The notes: generated by a model not told the origin, from the sequence alone. 64,000 bases of DNA from an uncultured Candidatus Saccharibacteria bacterium (GCA_946408595.1 CAMJSX010000002.1:31578-95577); one strand, 5' to 3'; shown: positions 5,371-20,554, numbered from the stretch's first letter. A program made the numbers and translations.

Positions 5371-8752
<3,382 letters not shown>

Positions 8753-12645: not shown

Positions 12646-12736
12646 GCGCCTGTGGTGGAATTGGTAGACACGCTACCTTGAGGTGGTAGTGGCCAAACCT
12701 ACGGCTGTGCTAGTTCGAGTCTAGTCAGGCGCACCA
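12646..12736 (+). tRNA. tRNA-Leu(GAG), CCA encoded
   Basis: Acceptor gcgcctg/caggcgc, D-arm ggaattggtagac, anticodon stem ctacc/ggtag with loop ttGAGgt, long variable arm, T-arm gttcgagt. Confidence 0.95.
12716..12736 (+). repeat. att core, left copy (tRNA 3' end)
   Basis: cgagtctagtcaggcgcacca, identical to 18558-18578. Confidence 0.95.
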
Positions 12737-14307
12737 AATGTAGATTTAATATATTTATGTGCTAATTCGATAGGGTCTTTATATCTGTAAAAGACCCTAT
12801 TTTGTTGGTCAATTTCCCAGTTCAAGAATATTTCTCGCGCCAAAAGGTCTTTTCCGACTGGGTTTCTAGCTCTCATCTGTTGTTCGAGCATATTAAGCGA
12901 GTTCAAGAACTTTTCTTGATTCATCTTCAAACCCTCTGGGTCTATGATTTGTGATTCGACTTTGGCTAGCTCTTGTTCTATATTTATCAAATCTTCTTGT
13001 AGCATCTCGATTTGTTCGCGAACCTTTTGTTTTACGATTTCCGGCGTCATGCTATCGAACTTAGAGTAAGTCGTAGCGTGTTCGTTAATCTTCGCTTGTT
13101 TACGGCGTTTAGCGCCTAATAAGCTACGTTTTTCAATGATTAGCTTGTCGAGCTTAACGTCAACGTATTCCTTTAGGTCTTTTAGATGTCGGTTATAATC
13201 TTTCTCGTCAAACTTTAGCTCGCCTAAGGCTTTGTAAATTTCTTCTAGTATTACCTTAACGCGAACGGCGCGTGGCTTTCTGGAGCACTCTTTGTTCTCG
13301 CATCTAGCGTTTAAATAATATGTTCCGTTATATCCGCGACTACGCGATATATACATATAGCGTCCGCACTCTCGGCATTTAATAAATTGCCTAAATGGTA
13401 GGAATATATGGCCTTTTTGCTTGTATTTAACTACATTACGGCGCGTTCGGCTCCTTGTTAGTTCTTGGACGGCGTTATAGTCGCTCTCGCTAATCATGGG
13501 TTTAAAATTAGGGTTCAACTCGCGCAAATCGACAGATGTTCCAGACTGAACTAAGATTCCGTAATAGAAAGGGTCGCGAAATATAGAGGTTGCCATTTTG
13601 TCGCTAATCTCTATACGTCGCTTTGTCTTATTCTTGCGCGTAATCTTCGTTATACGATGAACGTCATGTGCGCGCCAGTATTCTAGAATCTCGGCTATCG
13701 TAGAACCCTCTAAACGCATTTTCCAGCCCTCTTGGATATAATAGAAATTCTCGTTAGGCTCATAAAAGCCGGTTATTTCGCTACGAGTATAACCCCATTT
13801 CGGCACGCCAGACGACTTGCCTTGTTCTAGGTTTGAGTCCATGCCACGTTGCACGCTCTCGCTAAGATGTTCTGAATATTGTTTAGACAAAGCGAACTGG
13901 ATATTAAGGTTAAGTTTTCCGCTCGCGTTATTTGTAAACGGATGCGTTGGAAATTGCAGGTCTTTAATAACATCGTTATCTACCATATCGACTATCATGC
14001 CGGCCTCGAGCATATTGCGAGCTAGTCGGTCAGGATGCCACGCGATAATGCCGTCAAACTTACCGCTTTCAATATCTTTTAGCATCTGGGTAAATAAAGG
14101 GCGGTTTCCAGATTTCTTGGCTGATTTTGATTCCTGAATCGGCTTGCCAACTACTTTTAAATTATGCCTTAATGCATACTCCTCGCAGTCGGCTATTTGG
14201 TCGGGTAATGATTTAGCTTGCGCCTCTACATCTTCAGATGATTTGCGAGCATAAATAACATAGCGTAAAGGCTTTTTACTATTCCCATATCCATTAGTTA
14301 TAAGCAC
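12721..14307 (-). CDS. Large serine recombinase/integrase
   Basis: YVIYARKSSED catalytic Ser, DRLAR, recombinase domain, CxxC zinc ribbon, coiled coil; GTG start with AAGGAG RBS; stop lies inside att core. Confidence 0.95.
   Translation of the reverse strand: MLITNGYGNSKKPLRYVIYARKSSEDVEAQAKSLPDQIADCEEYALRHNLKVVGKPIQESKSAKKSGNRPLFTQMLKDIESGKFDGIIAWHPDRLARNMLEAGMIVDMVDNDVIKDLQFPTHPFTNNASGKLNLNIQFALSKQYSEHLSESVQRGMDSNLEQGKSSGVPKWGYTRSEITGFYEPNENFYYIQEGWKMRLEGSTIAEILEYWRAHDVHRITKITRKNKTKRRIEISDKMATSIFRDPFYYGILVQSGTSVDLRELNPNFKPMISESDYNAVQELTRSRTRRNVVKYKQKGHIFLPFRQFIKCRECGRYMYISRSRGYNGTYYLNARCENKECSRKPRAVRVKVILEEIYKALGELKFDEKDYNRHLKDLKEYVDVKLDKLIIEKRSLLGAKRRKQAKINEHATTYSKFDSMTPEIVKQKVREQIEMLQEDLINIEQELAKVESQIIDPEGLKMNQEKFLNSLNMLEQQMRARNPVGKDLLAREIFLNWEIDQQNRVFYRYKDPIELAHKYIKSTFGAPD
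12770..12800 (+). terminator. 11-bp inverted repeat downstream of tRNA, inside integrase CDS
   Basis: atagggtcttt-9 nt-aaagaccctat followed by ttt. Confidence 0.55.
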
Positions 14308-14325
14308 GCTATGCTCCTTGTTTAG

Positions 14326-14484
14326 TTAATATAGATATTCGACTCCGTCGCTACATACTCCGCGCCACGAATTTTCTTTGATTTCTTTGGCGGTAGGTTC
14401 GCCCATTTCATCGAGCGTCAATAGTAGCTTGATAAGGTTCTTGGCGCTCTCGATAGACTTTCTTTGGGTTTCGTTCAACTCCAC
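14326..14484 (-). CDS. 52-aa ORF upstream of integrase, not in ORF track
   Basis: AGGAG-ttttc-GTG; MELNETQRKSIESAKNLIKLLLTLDEMGEPTAKEIKENSWRGVCSDGVEYLY. Confidence 0.6.
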   Translation of the reverse strand: MELNETQRKSIESAKNLIKLLLTLDEMGEPTAKEIKENSWRGVCSDGVEYLY

Positions 14485-14675
14485 GAAAACTCCTAACGTT
14501 TAAAGTGCAATTCGAGAATCGCTCTCGAATCGGTATAGCGCCAAAGCCGTAGCAAACACACCTACGAAAATGGCGCAGGGTTCCCACCCTACGCCGCAAT
14601 TACTAATTACTATTATACCATTTTTGAACTATTTTTGAACCAAAAGCCATAAGCACCACTTGAAAACAAGTGGAA

Positions 14676-15185
14676 TTAGTCTTTAATAGCGCCAGTAATA
14701 ACGTTAATTATTTCTTGTTTTGTCATGTTTTCGAATTTACCAATTCGAGCAAGAGGAATTTTAGCCTCGCTAAATATGCGTTCAATTTCGTTATCGCGTT
14801 CTTTACGGTCGGTTCTATTATGAGTAGAGTCGTCTAACTCGATAGCGCAAATAATCTTATAACTTTCTTTTCCAACTAATACAAAATCAACCGACTTGCC
14901 GTTAATATGGCGAAACGCGGCGTTCCAATTTTGGCCTTTTACTTTATGATTCAATAGGGCGGAAAGATGCACTTGAGGAATTACGAACCATTTTGCGCCG
15001 AATATTTCATTTAAGGTTTTAAAGCACTCGTTTTCGCGAGCCGTCATAATATAGGGTTTGGCGTAGTATCGGTAGTGTGATTTTTTAATTTGACTATCGT
15101 TTATTTTTGTGTCGATTTTCTTTTCGATATAAGCTATACCGACGCAAGCTACGATTAAGATTATTATCCAAATATATGTAGGCAT
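14676..15185 (-). CDS. DUF2726 domain protein with N-terminal TM
   Basis: IMTARENECF, VIPQVHLSALL, KSVDFVL, AIELDDSTH, RDNEIE. Confidence 0.85.
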   Translation of the reverse strand: MPTYIWIIILIVACVGIAYIEKKIDTKINDSQIKKSHYRYYAKPYIMTARENECFKTLNEIFGAKWFVIPQVHLSALLNHKVKGQNWNAAFRHINGKSVDFVLVGKESYKIICAIELDDSTHNRTDRKERDNEIERIFSEAKIPLARIGKFENMTKQEIINVITGAIKD

Positions 15186-15200
15186 TTTCCACTCCTTTTA

Positions 15201-15956
15201 TTACTTTTTAAATACGAATAAATATTCATGCGCCAGTAATAAGAAATTGTATTTAACGCTATTCGTTTTCCAGTATCCGGTCGCTCGACAATTATGCTGT
15301 TCTTTCATAATGATTTCTTTTAGCTTAAAGCCAGCATCCTCAAATACTTGCATCGTTTTAAAACTAAGAGGGATGACATGGCCTTTTTGGCGCGTATCGC
15401 CCATTAGAATCGCGCAGAACTTGCCTTTCTTTAATACGCGATAACTTTCACTTGCGACGGCTTTCATTTGTTCTAGGAACTCATCTACTTTAAAATTCGA
15501 AAGGTCGGCCGGTATATCTTGACCCTCGCTATAATGAATAATGTTTGCGTAAGGCGGATGCGTGCAAATTAAATCTATACTATCGTTCGGCACTCCTTTT
15601 AGTTTTCGCGCATCTCCCTTACGGATATAGACTTTTCCGTCGGCGCCGTCATGCTTGAACTTTACTTTTTCTCGGCATCTTTTAAGAGCGTCATCGTTTA
15701 CGTCTAAGCCTAGAATATTTCTATTTAATAATTTAGCCTCTACTAGAGTAGTTCCGCCTCCGGCGAACTGGTCTAATACCATATCGCCCTCGCTAGAGTA
15801 GCGGAGAAGAATATTGCGCGGAATATATGGCGACCAGTTTCCGCGCCATTTCGCATCGTGGGTAGCCCAATTACCACGATTAGGGAAACTCCAGACGCTA
15901 GTCATTTCTAACTCAAAATCGTCTGGCTCCCATTTCTTAATAGTTTTATCGGGCAT
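15201..15956 (-). CDS. Amino (m6A/m4C) DNA methyltransferase
   Basis: Motif I DQFAGGGT followed by motif IV THPPY. Confidence 0.9.
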   Translation of the reverse strand: MPDKTIKKWEPDDFELEMTSVWSFPNRGNWATHDAKWRGNWSPYIPRNILLRYSSEGDMVLDQFAGGGTTLVEAKLLNRNILGLDVNDDALKRCREKVKFKHDGADGKVYIRKGDARKLKGVPNDSIDLICTHPPYANIIHYSEGQDIPADLSNFKVDEFLEQMKAVASESYRVLKKGKFCAILMGDTRQKGHVIPLSFKTMQVFEDAGFKLKEIIMKEQHNCRATGYWKTNSVKYNFLLLAHEYLFVFKK

Positions 15957-15961
15957 AGGCG

Positions 15962-16816
15962 CTAAAACCTTTCTATTACGCCACTCTCGAGGTCTTTAAT
16001 ATTATAGACATCATCTAATACGTCAAACGTTTCTTCTAGGTTGTTTCTGGCGCTGTTCCAGCCCTTTCCGTCGGTAAACCATGCAAACTTAAAGCCGTCT
16101 ATCGTTTTAGCCTCAAGTGCTAGCGTCTTGTAGCTACGAGCAGTTTCATTGAGTTTAGAGCCACCACTACCATAAAAATTAGTCTCAATTCCGTAGATAT
16201 TGTTAGCGGTCTTAATTACGAAATCAAATCGTTTTTCGGCTTTACCTTGATTAGAAATAGCAGAAAGGTCGATATTCCATTTATTTTCGATTTCGCTAAG
16301 ATTCATCTCTTTAAAGTAATTTTCGCCTTTAACGTATCCGGCTTTTTGGATATAGCCCTCTACGAGATTCTCCATTAAATGACCGCCACGATTCTTGCGT
16401 CCGTTAGAGTCTAGGCCAGTCTCTACGCCGGTGGCGTAATCTACTAGGTTGCTAATGATATGATTTGCGATAAGGTCGAATAGGCCAGTTTTTCGCATAA
16501 ATACCTTGTATTGTTCTACGGAGTAATTCATCTTATCGAACCTATAATTAAACTCTCCGTCCTCGTCTAGTGCGTAAATCTCATTAGCGCGAACGGCTAG
16601 TAAAATAGGAATACATTTTAGCGTTTCTGGGTATTTGGTAATAAGCGCATCAAACTCTCGCTCAATATTTTGCGAGCCTACGAGTGCATTTAATATATTT
16701 AATTCGACCTTGATAGCATCTACGTTCTTATGAATCTTTGGAAAGTCGATATAGTAGCCATAGTCGGCAATACTTTCGCGGAACTCTCCTAGCCATGCGT
16801 TAAAGTTTCTATTCAT
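15962..16816 (-). CDS. DpnII/MboI-family type II restriction endonuclease (GATC)
   Basis: GVETGLDSNGRKNRGG, KRFDFVI, IETNFYGSGGSKLNETARSY, WFTDGKGW. Confidence 0.93.
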   Translation of the reverse strand: MNRNFNAWLGEFRESIADYGYYIDFPKIHKNVDAIKVELNILNALVGSQNIEREFDALITKYPETLKCIPILLAVRANEIYALDEDGEFNYRFDKMNYSVEQYKVFMRKTGLFDLIANHIISNLVDYATGVETGLDSNGRKNRGGHLMENLVEGYIQKAGYVKGENYFKEMNLSEIENKWNIDLSAISNQGKAEKRFDFVIKTANNIYGIETNFYGSGGSKLNETARSYKTLALEAKTIDGFKFAWFTDGKGWNSARNNLEETFDVLDDVYNIKDLESGVIERF

Positions 16817-16827
16817 ATTACTCCTTT

Positions 16828-17904
16828 CTAGTTATTAAAATTTGATATTAACAATTCACTAATTTTGCCACGCGCGTCGCTATTGCGGTTTATCATACGC
16901 GTTGCAGAAACGCGTTTTATATTCTGTTTCGAATAGGCTTTGTCGAAGAAATCGTCGTCTTTGTTGGTGTTCTTTGGGTCGGAATTGCTGACGACTATCT
17001 TCGCTCCTTTATTGTCTAGTTCTTGCACGAAACGAGCAAGCTCAAGCTGATTCTTATCGTCGAATAGTTCTTCGGTATAAGATGTAAAGTTTGCGGTCGG
17101 AGTTAGTGGCCTGTATGGGGGGTCGAAATATACAAAAGTTTTATCGTCTATAAAGTCGGCAGACTCTTTATAATCTCCGCATACTATTTTGACGTCCTTG
17201 AGCTTTTTTGAAATGGCTCTAAGGTTATCCTCGTTGCAAATTTGGGGATTCTTGTAAGCGCCAATAGGCACGTTAAAATCGCCTTTCTTATTAACTCGAT
17301 AAAGTCCATTAAAGCAGGTTCTATTTAGAAAAATCATGAGCATAGATTTTTCTGGATTAAGGTCGGCTCTATCCATGTGTTTTAATTCATTAAAACGACC
17401 GCGCGCCTTTATATACATATCTTTCCGGTCGGCATCGTCTAGTTCTAAATAGGCCTTTTCAACTGATTTTAGTCGCTCTATAAATTCATCTACGTTATCA
17501 CGAATCGCAATATAAGTATCTATAAGGTCTTTGTTAATATCGCTAATATAAACCTCGTCTGGAGAGAACTTGTTTAGAACATCAAACAATACGGCGCCAC
17601 CACCAACGAAAGGCTCCGCGTATTTCGTAATCGTTTTATCTTTTTCAAAAGGGTAATAAGCGCTAATTTCTTTAAGTAGTTGGCCTTTACCGCCAGCCCA
17701 CTTTAAGAAAGGTTTAGCATCTAAATTATTTTTTGGGTTGTCTTTTTTTCTTGCATCTAGAGGTTTTAGGGCGTTCTCCGGAATTATCCATGCATTAGCT
17801 ACAAATGTTGCACCCTCAATCCGGTTTTCAGAACAAAGAGTAGCGACTCTACGTTGCGAAATACCCCATTTTGTCGCAATATCTTTGGCCGAAACAAACG
17901 CCAT
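16828..17904 (-). CDS. Dam/DpnM-family adenine methyltransferase with N-terminal HTH
   Basis: PFLKWAGGK, EPFVGGGAV, NRTCFNGLYRVN, YFDPPY; N-terminal SAKDIATKWGISQRRVATLC; RBS GGAGG. Confidence 0.95.
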   Translation of the reverse strand: MAFVSAKDIATKWGISQRRVATLCSENRIEGATFVANAWIIPENALKPLDARKKDNPKNNLDAKPFLKWAGGKGQLLKEISAYYPFEKDKTITKYAEPFVGGGAVLFDVLNKFSPDEVYISDINKDLIDTYIAIRDNVDEFIERLKSVEKAYLELDDADRKDMYIKARGRFNELKHMDRADLNPEKSMLMIFLNRTCFNGLYRVNKKGDFNVPIGAYKNPQICNEDNLRAISKKLKDVKIVCGDYKESADFIDDKTFVYFDPPYRPLTPTANFTSYTEELFDDKNQLELARFVQELDNKGAKIVVSNSDPKNTNKDDDFFDKAYSKQNIKRVSATRMINRNSDARGKISELLISNFNN

Positions 17905-17933
17905 ATTTTCCTCCACAATTAACTAATACTTAT

Positions 17934-17963
17934 ATTATACCAAATCTGGAACAAAACTGGATC
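17934..17963 (-). promoter_or_regulatory. R-M operon promoter with GATC at -35 and tandem repeats
   Basis: Minus strand gatccagttttgttccagatttggTATAAT. Confidence 0.65.
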
Positions 17964-17982
17964 TAAAAATGGCGATTTTGTT

Positions 17983-18330
17983 CTAACCTCTAGTTAACTT
18001 GCGAATGCCATTTATTATTTGCTCTTGAACGGCAATATCGTTTTTATTCGTTTCTGGATTAGAGATAGAGTTCCAATTAAGCAAATCTTCTCTGATGCTT
18101 TTTAATTCTTCTCCATATAGCTCCAATAAGTGTAGTTCAGTCATCTTGTAGCGCTCCATTAGAGCATCTTTTTCAAATAATATGGCATCTTCTATTTCGG
18201 ATGCTAACTCTTTACTCCATTTGAGTAGGGTATTCTTGCTTACTCCTAGTTGCTTTACGATGTTGTCATAACTATTGCCTTTGGCTCTTAGCTCTATGAA
18301 TTTAGCTTGTTTTTCCACTTTGTTTTCCAT
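17983..18330 (-). CDS. Small HTH protein
   Basis: ELRAKGNSYDNIVKQLGVSKNTLLKW; RBS AAGGAG. Confidence 0.7.
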   Translation of the reverse strand: MENKVEKQAKFIELRAKGNSYDNIVKQLGVSKNTLLKWSKELASEIEDAILFEKDALMERYKMTELHLLELYGEELKSIREDLLNWNSISNPETNKNDIAVQEQIINGIRKLTRG

Positions 18331-18557
18331 ATATTTCTCCTTATAGTTCAAGGTGGAGTAGGTTATAGCGATAACCTAGTATATAAATTCTTCTATTCTG
18401 GGGTATTTACTCCTTTCTAGTTCTTTAGGTTTAAACTCGTAATTTGGATGCAAAAACCACCAGTCCGTGATATAATAGAGTAGTTCAGGTTTAACGTAAT
18501 CTGGCGCACCACGTCCTAACGGACAGCTTAAAAAGCAAGACATCGTTGCTTCGCAAG

Positions 18558-18578
18558 CGAGTCTAGTCAGGCGCACCA
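18558..18578 (+). repeat. att core, right copy
   Basis: Exact 21-bp copy of the tRNA-Leu 3' end. Confidence 0.95.
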
Positions 18579-18596
18579 TTTATTATAAGGAGGTAG

Positions 18597-19607
18597 ATGA
18601 AAAAGTCATTATTGAAGATTTCGTGCATCGCATTGACATTAATGCTAGGCACGATTTTTTGTAACTACAAAACCGTTTTCGCAGAAGAATCTACTAATGC
18701 CGAAGAAAGTGAAGTTCAAAAAGCCTCTACTAGCATTAGTATCACACCAGTAAGTAAAATCCTAAAACTTGAGCCAAGCACCGAATACAAAGATTCCTTC
18801 ACCGTAACAAATAATGGTAGCGAAACTATGGAATTTGAAGTCTACGCCGCGCCGTACTCATATGTTTTTTCGGAAGATGATAATGAATACCGTTTAGGTT
18901 TTAGCAACGAAACTGCCTACACTCAAATCACTAGATGGATTACCTTCAAAGATACAAATGGAAACTATGTTAAAAACCCAAGGTTCAAAGTTGAACCTGG
19001 CGAGAGTACCAAAGTATCATATCGTATTTCTACCCCTTTCAGTATCCCTGACGGAGGACAATACGCCGTCCTCTTCGCACACACCTTATCGGCTACGGTA
19101 TTATCAAATGGTATCCGTACCGAAGCAAGCCCTGGTCTAATCGTTTATGGCCGTTCAAGTGGGGAAACCATCAACTCTGCAGAAATCAATAACTTGGAAA
19201 TCAGACAAACATTTAATGATGGCCAAGAAACCAAGAACATCATCAATGCCTCAGCTAAAGTAAAAAATACTGGTAACGTTGATTTCATGGCCTATGGCAA
19301 GCTTAAAGTTACTGGTCTTTTCGGCGTTACATATTATGAGACACCTTCAAGCGAAGGAATGATTTCGATTATCCCAGAAACCGAGTTGACCGTGTCAGAC
19401 AAATGGGAAAAGACACCATATTTTGGAATTTTTAATGCGACCTGGACCGTTACTGCAACCGATAAAACAGAAACTATCAGTATGGTAATTCTGATTCTCC
19501 CAGCGCCAATCATTATTCTTCTAATTTTGCTATTGACAATTATTGCAATTTGGATTATACTTATGGTAAGGAAGCGTAAAGAACGCCGTTCTAGATATCT
19601 GGTCTAG
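18597..19607 (+). CDS. Exported protein resembling WxL-interacting DUF916/DUF3324 proteins
   Basis: Signal peptide, FTVTNNG, IPDGGQYAVLF, VKNTGNVD, C-terminal TM plus basic tail. Confidence 0.65.
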   Translation: MKKSLLKISCIALTLMLGTIFCNYKTVFAEESTNAEESEVQKASTSISITPVSKILKLEPSTEYKDSFTVTNNGSETMEFEVYAAPYSYVFSEDDNEYRLGFSNETAYTQITRWITFKDTNGNYVKNPRFKVEPGESTKVSYRISTPFSIPDGGQYAVLFAHTLSATVLSNGIRTEASPGLIVYGRSSGETINSAEINNLEIRQTFNDGQETKNIINASAKVKNTGNVDFMAYGKLKVTGLFGVTYYETPSSEGMISIIPETELTVSDKWEKTPYFGIFNATWTVTATDKTETISMVILILPAPIIILLILLLTIIAIWIILMVRKRKERRSRYLV

Positions 19608-19675
19608 TCTGGCGACCGTGTGGAGCGGTTTTACGAGGCCAAAATAAATATTAAACATAAACAAGAGTGTAGAGT

Positions 19676-20554
19676 ATGAGAAAAACACAAAAAAGAATTT
19701 TTGGGTTCTTTGGCTTACTCATCGTCGCAATGATGACTATTATAGCGACAATGATACCGAGTCCAGGAGCCTCGGCGAACAGTGTGACCGACACAATTAT
19801 TGTGCGAGTGGTCGGTAATGTCACAAACGCCAAATTTCAAAAACCTAGTGGAAACGTTATCACGACAGATGACGGGACCAACTATATATTTAATTATGAA
19901 AATGCCAGCGCCGTAAGGCTAGCCTTGTCTTACACCAACAAGGAAAACGCCACGGTTGATCTAGAGGATTATGAATTGTACCCCGATTTAGGAAATGTTG
20001 CTGGCACAAAAGACGAGAATTTGAATGTACGCGCACGCGGATTTTCTTATGGTAGATACATTTTGTCCCTGTATGCTACAGGCCCAGAAGGATCAGAGCT
20101 CCTATATGATTCTATTTCAATAGAATACATACCTGTGATTGCTGAAGCGGAACAAAATGAGGACAATGGATTGGTGGATTTGGATTTAAGCTCTTATGAT
20201 GACGAGGATGTTGAGATAGTAGAAATCTATTTGGATGGTGAGCTTATTAAGACGGTGCCAAAGGACAAATTTGACGAAGTTGCAACAATTGATTTAGGCG
20301 ATAAAGAAAGTGGTGAATACACATTTGACGTAATAGCAAAGAACGCGGACGGAGACATTCTATATAGCCCATACAAAGTAACTTTCGATTACGATGCAAC
20401 TGGTATACCAGACACCGACGTACCAGATACCGGTTATTTCTTCCAGAATTTGAATATATCTAGAGAAGACTATTTGATCACCGGGCTAATCGTATTCTTT
20501 GTATTCGGAATAGTGGCATTTAGTATAGTAGCAAAGGGAAGCAAGCGAAAATAA
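19676..20554 (+). CDS. Surface protein with VPDTG sorting-like C-terminus
   Basis: N-terminal signal, acidic Ig-like body, VPDTGYF then TM then KGSKRK. Confidence 0.65.
   Translation: MRKTQKRIFGFFGLLIVAMMTIIATMIPSPGASANSVTDTIIVRVVGNVTNAKFQKPSGNVITTDDGTNYIFNYENASAVRLALSYTNKENATVDLEDYELYPDLGNVAGTKDENLNVRARGFSYGRYILSLYATGPEGSELLYDSISIEYIPVIAEAEQNEDNGLVDLDLSSYDDEDVEIVEIYLDGELIKTVPKDKFDEVATIDLGDKESGEYTFDVIAKNADGDILYSPYKVTFDYDATGIPDTDVPDTGYFFQNLNISREDYLITGLIVFFVFGIVAFSIVAKGSKRK

Follow-up and report, generated by a model that had tools for sequence, protein, structure and literature searches.

The 64-kb stretch of DNA analysed here (the window) contains a small mobile element which is integrated in tRNA-Leu and encodes a serine recombinase. 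A 21-bp direct repeat, CGAGTCTAGTCAGGCGCACCA, was found at the 3' end of the tRNA gene and again at a second site, and the two copies delimit an integrated element of 5842 bp (12737-18578), so that the island limits given in the original prediction proved to be real. The tRNA duplication is limited to these 21 bp. A partial third copy of the att core (TAATCTGGCGCACCA, 18497-18511) lies 67 nt inside attR and may be the remnant of an earlier integration. All genes of the island are located on the minus strand (Table 1).

Table 1. Features of the island and of the promoter of its restriction-modification (R-M) operon; positions are counted from the first letter of the window.
Feature	Position	Strand	Remarks
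tRNA-Leu(GAG)	12646-12736		ARAGORN and Rfam
attL core, 21-bp direct repeat	12716-12736	+	3' end of tRNA-Leu(GAG)
Large serine recombinase	12721-14307	-	
DUF2726 protein	14676-15185	-	Accessory, related to nuclease folds
M2, second N6/N4 DNA methylase	15201-15956	-	251 aa; PF01555, 5e-23
R, DpnII-family restriction endonuclease	15962-16816	-	284 aa; PF04556, 1.4e-109, full profile
M1, fusion of HTH and Dam/DpnM-type N6-adenine methylase	16828-17904	-	358 aa; PF02086, 9e-65; TIGR00571, 7e-86
Coding region of the N-terminal winged HTH, M1 residues 1-47	17764-17904	-	Beta-alpha-alpha-beta-beta (model)
Ribosome-binding site GGAGG	17910-17914	-	5 nt ahead of the ATG at 17904
Extended -10, TGgTATAAT	17934-17942	-	TATAAT at 17934-17939
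Putative operator core TTCCAGATTTGGTA	17938-17951	-	TTC-N8-GAA, abutting TATAAT in the family consensus
Tandem 11-mers TCCAGTTTTGT (17951-17961) and TCCAGATTTGG (17940-17950)	17940-17961	-	
Hexamer ATCCAG at the -35 position	17957-17962	-	17-nt spacer; poor match to TTGACA
Sole GATC of the island	17960-17963		-35 position of the operon promoter
HTH_23 ORF	17983-18351	-	122 aa; just upstream of the promoter
67-aa ORF		-	Without match
attR core, second copy of the 21-bp repeat	18558-18578	+	

The operon comprises M1, R, M2 and then the DUF2726 gene, all co-directional, with R starting 11 nt past the stop codon of M1. Residues 62-357 of M1 align with residues 10-283 of DpnM (2dpm, 6e-51), and a match to E. 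coli Dam was also obtained (2e-37); the DPPY motif and the DNA-recognition hairpin FNGLYRVN...FNVP are aligned in all three proteins. Since the alignment to DpnM begins at residue 62, about 60 residues of M1 represent an N-terminal addition. M2 occupies the slot of DpnA and M.MboIC downstream of R, to which it is likened by position and family, and its gene is kept downstream of M1 in most related loci. The DUF2726 gene is found in this island lineage only. Taken together, the operon is almost certainly a GATC R-M system of the DpnII/MboI type, and GATC is thus very probably the recognition sequence of the system itself, and not a host Dam site alone. From family membership, R is expected to cleave unmethylated GATC and the methylases to protect it as G6mATC. 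That GATC is the system's own target was missing from the original prediction.

A scan of island ORFs of 60 aa and more revealed no C gene of the XRE type. The HTH_23 ORF belongs to a family different from that of the C proteins, and its stop codon lies 19 nt ahead of the GATC. It is frameshifted, together with the serine recombinase, in two sister islands (L083 and L084, 10598-12172 and 6553-6920), where the genes from M1 to DUF2726 and the promoter with its GATC are intact. In these two loci the island is immobilised and the R-M operon retained.

A computational count gave 137 GATC sites in the window. Exactly one of them falls within the island, in agreement with the earlier manual scan, and it is the sole GATC between 12247 and 19958. 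From base composition 20.4 sites are expected in the island, which matches the earlier figure of roughly 20, while 18.3 are expected from a first-order Markov model, 14.3 from a maximal-order Markov model and 13.7 from the rate elsewhere in the window (2.34 per kb). At this last rate the Poisson probability of finding one site or none is 1.7e-5, and the island shows the fewest GATC of all sliding windows of 5.8 kb (median 14). The depletion in host sequence is mild (observed/expected 0.65). The sister islands (L081-L084, with M1 90-96% identical) also have one GATC only, at the promoter, and their operons contain none, although 6-7 would be expected. In relatives with about 70% identity, 2-7 sites are kept in the operon, where about 8 are expected; the purge is therefore recent and lineage-specific, and it has spared the promoter site. 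Complete avoidance of GATC is a trait of the mobile island lineage, which the R-M genes do not need.

A second tetranucleotide, GTAC, is absent from the island (9.8 expected) and occurs 0-1 times in the sister islands L081 and L083 (about 10 expected), whereas the flanking host DNA is normal. Its absence suggests restriction avoidance by a mobile element that meets several R-M specificities, and points to exposure to an RsaI-type specificity. As a separate observation, the density of CGCG (32 sites) and GCGC (36 sites) in the island is about three times that in the remaining 58 kb (120 and 130 sites), a compositional mark of foreign origin. The GATC-free run extends 1.4 kb past the right end of the island (18579-19957, none against about 3 expected); this deficit is marginal and may be due to chance.

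The promoter of the operon reads TTTTTAGATCCAGTTTTGTTCCAGATTTGGTATAATATAAG on the minus strand, and a longer read of the same strand gives ...GGTTAG(stop)AACAAAATCGCCATTTTTAGATCCAGTTTTGTTCCAGATTTGGTATAATATAAGTATTAGTTAATTGTGGAGGAAAATATG. An alignment of 72 distinct related promoters shows its TATAAT without variation, and the TG extension occurs in the window lineage only. With a 17-nt spacer, the hexamer at the -35 position shares 3 nt with the GATC, so that the overlap proposed earlier holds for this predicted promoter. The hexamer ATCCAG is itself a direct-repeat copy of the left half-site of the operator, TTCCAG, and lies 11 bp upstream of it. The tandem imperfect 11-mers that had been noticed beside the GATC are both present and identical at 7 of 11 positions; their counterparts in relatives are TCTAGTATTAT and TCTAGATTTGG. 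The second 11-mer corresponds to the left part of an operator found throughout the family, and the first is clade-specific. In the window lineage, a difference of 2 nt gives rise to the extended -10 and at the same time turns the right arm of the operator into a degenerate GTA; since GTA stands here instead of GAA, repression may be weaker in this lineage. An 8-bp inverted repeat (GAACAAAA / TTTTGTTC, at 17949-17956 and 17976-17983, with 19 nt between the arms) also flanks the GATC. This repeat is confined to the window lineage, and its left arm runs into the stop codon of the HTH_23 ORF.

Generic scans for promoters and terminators remained at the level of shuffled sequences and did not flag the promoter at 17934-17963, because its -35 is poor. 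The best promoter-like match of the region (ATGACT-16-TATAAT, 18582-18609, minus strand) spans attR and is directed into the island, toward the 67-aa and HTH_23 ORFs. A search of the 64-kb window with Rfam detected tRNA-Leu only, and no non-coding RNA in or near the promoter. Related contigs from metatranscriptome-labelled runs cover M1 and R and reach across the promoter and the ORF upstream of it as well. As these contigs run through the promoter, no start site can be read from them; they probably derive from DNA carry-over or read-through.

The original prediction had described the first gene as a methylase fused to an HTH. This is borne out by M1, a D12/Dam-class methylase with some 60 extra N-terminal residues that are predicted to form a winged HTH. 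The layout of M1 consists of the HTH (residues 1-47), a flexible linker (about 48-63) and the methylase (64-358); in the structure prediction, the disordered linker of some 20 residues spans 50-72. Although the match of the N-terminal region to HTH_17 is weak, structure prediction returned the winged HTH with confidence (pLDDT 88). Its best fold matches are BldC, RacA and the N-terminal domains of the MerR family (TM 0.64-0.72), with Foldseek E-values of 0.1 or higher which are weak because the domain is small; no sequence-level match to this domain was found in PDB. On the strength of the model, the N-terminal domain is a MerR/BldC-like winged HTH. A 6mA-reading winged helix like that of DpnI was also considered for this domain and was rejected, since the fold search gave the MerR/BldC type instead. 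The predicted recognition helix (ISQRRV..LCSE.RI) and the wing (VGN.W.IP) are the same in all clades.

The fusion of HTH and methylase is widespread, with at least 8000 full-length matches in a protein search. The nearest named relatives of M1 come from metagenome-assembled genomes of Candidatus Saccharibacteria, followed by many Clostridia, and the runs that contain the island are ruminant gut metagenomes. In total, 143 related loci were collected from genomes, metagenomes and an exact-protein look-up. The promoter consensus upstream of the HTH-bearing genes is taTTGCTaTTaTTCgaGaTtTaGAATATAAT. It consists of a TTGCTA -35, a 17-nt spacer with an imperfect palindrome (invariant TTC-N8-GAA) and a perfect TATAAT. 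TTC-N8-GAA is conserved together with TATAAT in 72 distinct promoters, and the strict motif gave 66 matches in the 2.4 Mb searched, about one per locus. Covariation between the arms of the palindrome is weak (operator position 4 versus 11; C-G pairing in 8 of 12, G and T unconstrained).

Each locus was then scored for the HTH signature in the protein and for the motif upstream of the gene. Both were present in 76 loci from several phyla and both were absent from 47; the 10 mixed loci are mostly contig ends or misses of the signature. This association is partly phylogenetic and rests on few independent events of gain or loss. The tie between motif and HTH strongly supports that the HTH binds the element and autoregulates the operon, and it is quite probable that the HTH of M1 recognises TTC-N8-GAA and represses its own operon. 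Autoregulation by the fusion in place of a separate C protein, as put forward in the original prediction, is thus very likely, given the pattern across loci and the C-gene scan. In the literature searched, no description of an HTH-fused methylase of the Dam/DpnII type or of its operator was found, and the large Dam/DpnM-type HTH-methylase family, common in gut Firmicutes and Saccharibacteria, is apparently undescribed. What is new here is a very large and sharply defined family of putatively autoregulated N6-adenine methylases.

The conservation of the GATC was examined in the Saccharibacteria-type clade, defined by an M1 67-96% identical to that of the window. The site is invariant in 16 of 16 distinct promoters of this clade and lies exactly at -12 from the TTC of the operator. 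In the clade consensus, AGATCTAGtATTATTCTaGtTTTgGAATATAAT, GATC(T/C)AG takes the place of the TTGCTA -35. Mean pairwise identity within the clade is 0.30 in the 29 nt before the GATC, 1.00 in the GATC, 0.84 in the next 28 nt and 0.45 at third codon positions of M1. Invariance of the GATC, while the third codon positions of M1 and the upstream sequence have diverged to this extent, indicates purifying selection. It is thereby demonstrated that selection maintains the GATC as an element of the clade promoter. The clade promoter carries three triplets, (G)ATC, TTC and GAA, phased at 11 bp, which places the GATC inside a direct-repeat copy of the left half-site of the operator and explains the tandem 11-mers.

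Outside the clade, GATC is missing in 52 of 56 distinct promoters, most Firmicutes-type promoters having a TTGCTA -35 instead; it occurs at varying positions in the remaining 4. A GATC within 3 nt of the clade position was found in 3 of the 56 promoters of other clades against about 0.8 expected, which is not significant. The expectation of a conserved site, which came with the proposed methylation-sensing switch, therefore holds within the clade and fails elsewhere.

Homology between loci in different contexts starts 0-9 nt ahead of the GATC in most pairs, and the conserved part of the module begins with the GATC. Such a boundary speaks for a chance survivor or a scar, with the GATC marking the junction of the R-M cassette (for example a repaired cut of the DpnII type) or being the last site not yet purged. 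In the GATC-less clades, however, the conserved block begins at the same promoter position, so the boundary is that of the promoter. The site is invariant in 16 distinct sequences whose synonymous sites are saturated. A module bounded by GATC at both ends was rejected, as homology ends at the stop codon of M2, where neither a GATC nor a remnant was found at a consistent position; this too disfavours a junction scar. We regard this explanation as very improbable.

As most promoters outside the clade do without GATC, the fusion works without it. The GATC might thus be kept purely as sequence, in a system that relies on autorepression and in which the methylation state has no regulatory effect. 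It would then belong to a third half-site for the HTH (ATCYAG, repeated directly as TTCYAG 11 bp downstream) or to the clade's substitute for the -35. The family-wide design with TTGCTA speaks for this, as does the conservation of the whole block from AGATC to TATAAT (identity 0.84), which goes beyond the GATC. The fold class points the same way: BldC and excisionase-like domains are known to bind direct repeats head to tail, and the multimers that BldC is reported to form on such repeats (PMC5859096) would fit the 11-bp phasing of ATC and TTC. On the other hand, some 14-20 expected GATC were removed while the system's own target was left in its own promoter, which is unlikely to be neutral. 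A single survivor placed at random would fall in a promoter of 35-60 bp with a probability of about 0.01, as calculated from the coordinates. M1 and M2 would moreover be expected to methylate the site in any case, and by analogy with AhdI and CfrBI two N6-methyl groups in the major groove of a protein site or a -35 usually matter. Autorepression alone is considered possible but somewhat unlikely.

The linker and the fixed geometry of the promoter were also weighed in favour of another role, in which the catalytic domain of an operator-bound M1 molecule, tethered through its linker, would dock on the GATC. HTH and methylase domain would together clamp the promoter, and repression would depend on the site still being a substrate and not on methyl groups acting on the polymerase. 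A disordered linker does separate the two domains, the distance between GATC and operator is fixed at 12 bp in all clade members, and repression by the fused methylase EcoRII is reported to depend on the methylation state of its substrate sites (PMC12707154). Repression would, however, be strongest before methylation, the opposite of what is needed on entering a new host, and the site is missing in most family members. This role is judged decidedly unlikely.

The explanation that we favour combines autorepression, a selected promoter GATC and methylation feedback, and as a whole it is given an even chance. Positions 17934-17963 would be the promoter and operator of the operon, a Type II R-M system of the DpnII/MboI type with specificity for GATC. 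The winged HTH of M1 would bind TTC-N8-GAA, which fills the spacer and abuts the -10, and thereby repress the operon with no need for a C protein. The island has been purged of GATC, very probably its own target, except for one site, at the -35 position and within an ATC-N8-TTC-N8-GAA array of 11-bp phasing. This site would be methylated by M1 and M2, and the binding of RNA polymerase, of the HTH or of both would change in response to the N6-methyl groups present in the major groove, so that the promoter would report whether the GATC sites of the cell are modified. In the likeliest direction, expression would be high while the site is unmethylated, on entry into a new host, or hemimethylated after replication. 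Full methylation would lower expression and act as a second, activity-dependent negative feedback, comparable to that at the methylase promoters of CfrBI and AhdI. That methylation of the promoter GATC by M1 or M2 modulates the binding of polymerase or HTH is, by this analogy, about as probable as its opposite or slightly less so; methylation sensing at this site is plausible.

A more specific form of the favoured explanation, which we consider improbable, makes the fusion a reader as well as a writer, with the methylated GATC turning into a good third half-site for the HTH. The N6-methyl groups of GATC would sit in the major groove where the thymine methyl groups of the invariant TTC half-site lie, so that the third half-site would become good only after modification by the catalytic domain of M1 or by M2. 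Full repression would then be licensed only once the GATC sites of the cell are methylated. If this were true, the operon would be a self-contained sensor of completed modification, at the price of one target left in the island.

Several features of the system are already known from others. DpnII of S. pneumoniae, MboI and LlaDCHI, which are GATC-specific Type IIP systems with two methylases, likewise combine a Dam/DpnM-class core with a DpnII-family endonuclease and with another methylase of the N6/N4 type in co-directional genes, and the M-R-M order of the island operon matches that of MboI. Compared with these systems, M1 of the island adds the fused N-terminal winged HTH and the conserved putative operator. 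The island system is further distinguished by its location on a tRNA-integrated serine-recombinase island and by the extra DUF2726 gene.

M.SsoII, M.Ecl18kI, M.EcoRII, M.MspI and M.ScrFIA are C5-cytosine methylases with an N-terminal HTH and an operator over their own promoter, in which autorepression replaces a C protein, as is putatively the case in the island. Repression of their own promoters by the HTH-fused methylases of SsoII, Ecl18kI, EcoRII, MspI and ScrFI is described in PMC3874152 and PMC12707154; for EcoRII it hinges on methylation of the substrate sites. In most of the SsoII-like cases that have been studied, R and M are divergent and their promoters compete, whereas the island has one promoter and a single M-R-M operon. 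The island methylase also differs in being a Dam-family N6-adenine methylase with a MerR/BldC/HTH_17-like HTH, and in the cognate site that was added to the promoter in its clade. As its catalytic core is of the Dam/DpnM type, M1 would work like the SsoII/EcoRII group without being a homologous member of it.

CfrBI, AhdI and LlaDII share with the island, where this is predicted, a single cognate site inside core promoter elements of the methylase gene. Methylation of that site is reported to attenuate transcription of the methylase in AhdI (PMC2275141) as well as in CfrBI and LlaDII (PMC12707154; bioRxiv 10.64898/2025.12.04.692298). The site is located at the -35 in the island and at the -10 in AhdI; R is co-transcribed in the island and divergent in CfrBI. 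The island differs from all three in combining the site with a putative HTH operator, and the effect of methylation, demonstrated in those systems, is proposed here. A GATC in a promoter or operator also ties transcription to methylation state or replication at pIN of the IS10 transposase, pap and agn43 in enterobacteria. Those elements read the orphan Dam of the host, whereas in the island the regulated operon itself supplies the writer. BldC and the excisionase-type MerR-like proteins stand alone, in contrast to the HTH of M1, which is fused to an enzyme. HTH autorepression and promoter methylation are thus each already known, and it looks as if their pairing in a Dam-family system is new; one lineage seems to have recruited the system's own target into its control region.

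An R-M system that enters a new cell has to express the methylase before the nuclease and then to hold both at safe levels. Two solutions are known: the methylase may carry a fused repressor domain, or the promoter may contain a recognition site. Judged from its sequences, a thousands-strong family of Dam/DpnM-type methylases appears to use the former, and one lineage appears to add the latter. The GATC-purged island represents a natural experiment in which selection removed all targets and left a single one, in the control region. Should methylation sensing prove true, the circuit would be compact, the mark produced by the enzyme feeding back on its own gene, and it would help to explain how R-M islands become established in episymbionts with reduced genomes, for example Saccharibacteria. 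Otherwise, the conserved putative operator is still a useful annotation rule for the HTH-methylase family.

The loci collected differ in the genes that accompany the operon. Two contigs carry an M1 identical to that of the window in other arrangements. In one of them (L141), DUF2726 is missing and two additional GATC are present. In the other (L142) the island follows an SBP_bac_5 gene in the same orientation, without a 161-aa ORF and apparently without a tRNA in between. The slot after M1 is variable among loci. In L001 a 179-aa PD-(D/E)XK_11 nuclease (7080-7619) stands between M1 and M2 instead of a DpnII-family R, and in Ruminococcus bromii ATCC 27255 (L010, 2972-5355), whose family member carries the consensus operator, the order is M1, PDDEXK_11, DpnII R, an Mrr_cat nuclease and M2. 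In a first screen, the DpnII R was not directly after M1 in 22 of 75 HTH-bearing loci. Within M1 itself, metatranscriptome-labelled contigs carry unrelated sequence for a block of 273 nt (17213-17487). The swapped block covers roughly residues 140-230, a variable helical insert, and suggests a hot spot of recombination inside the methylase gene.
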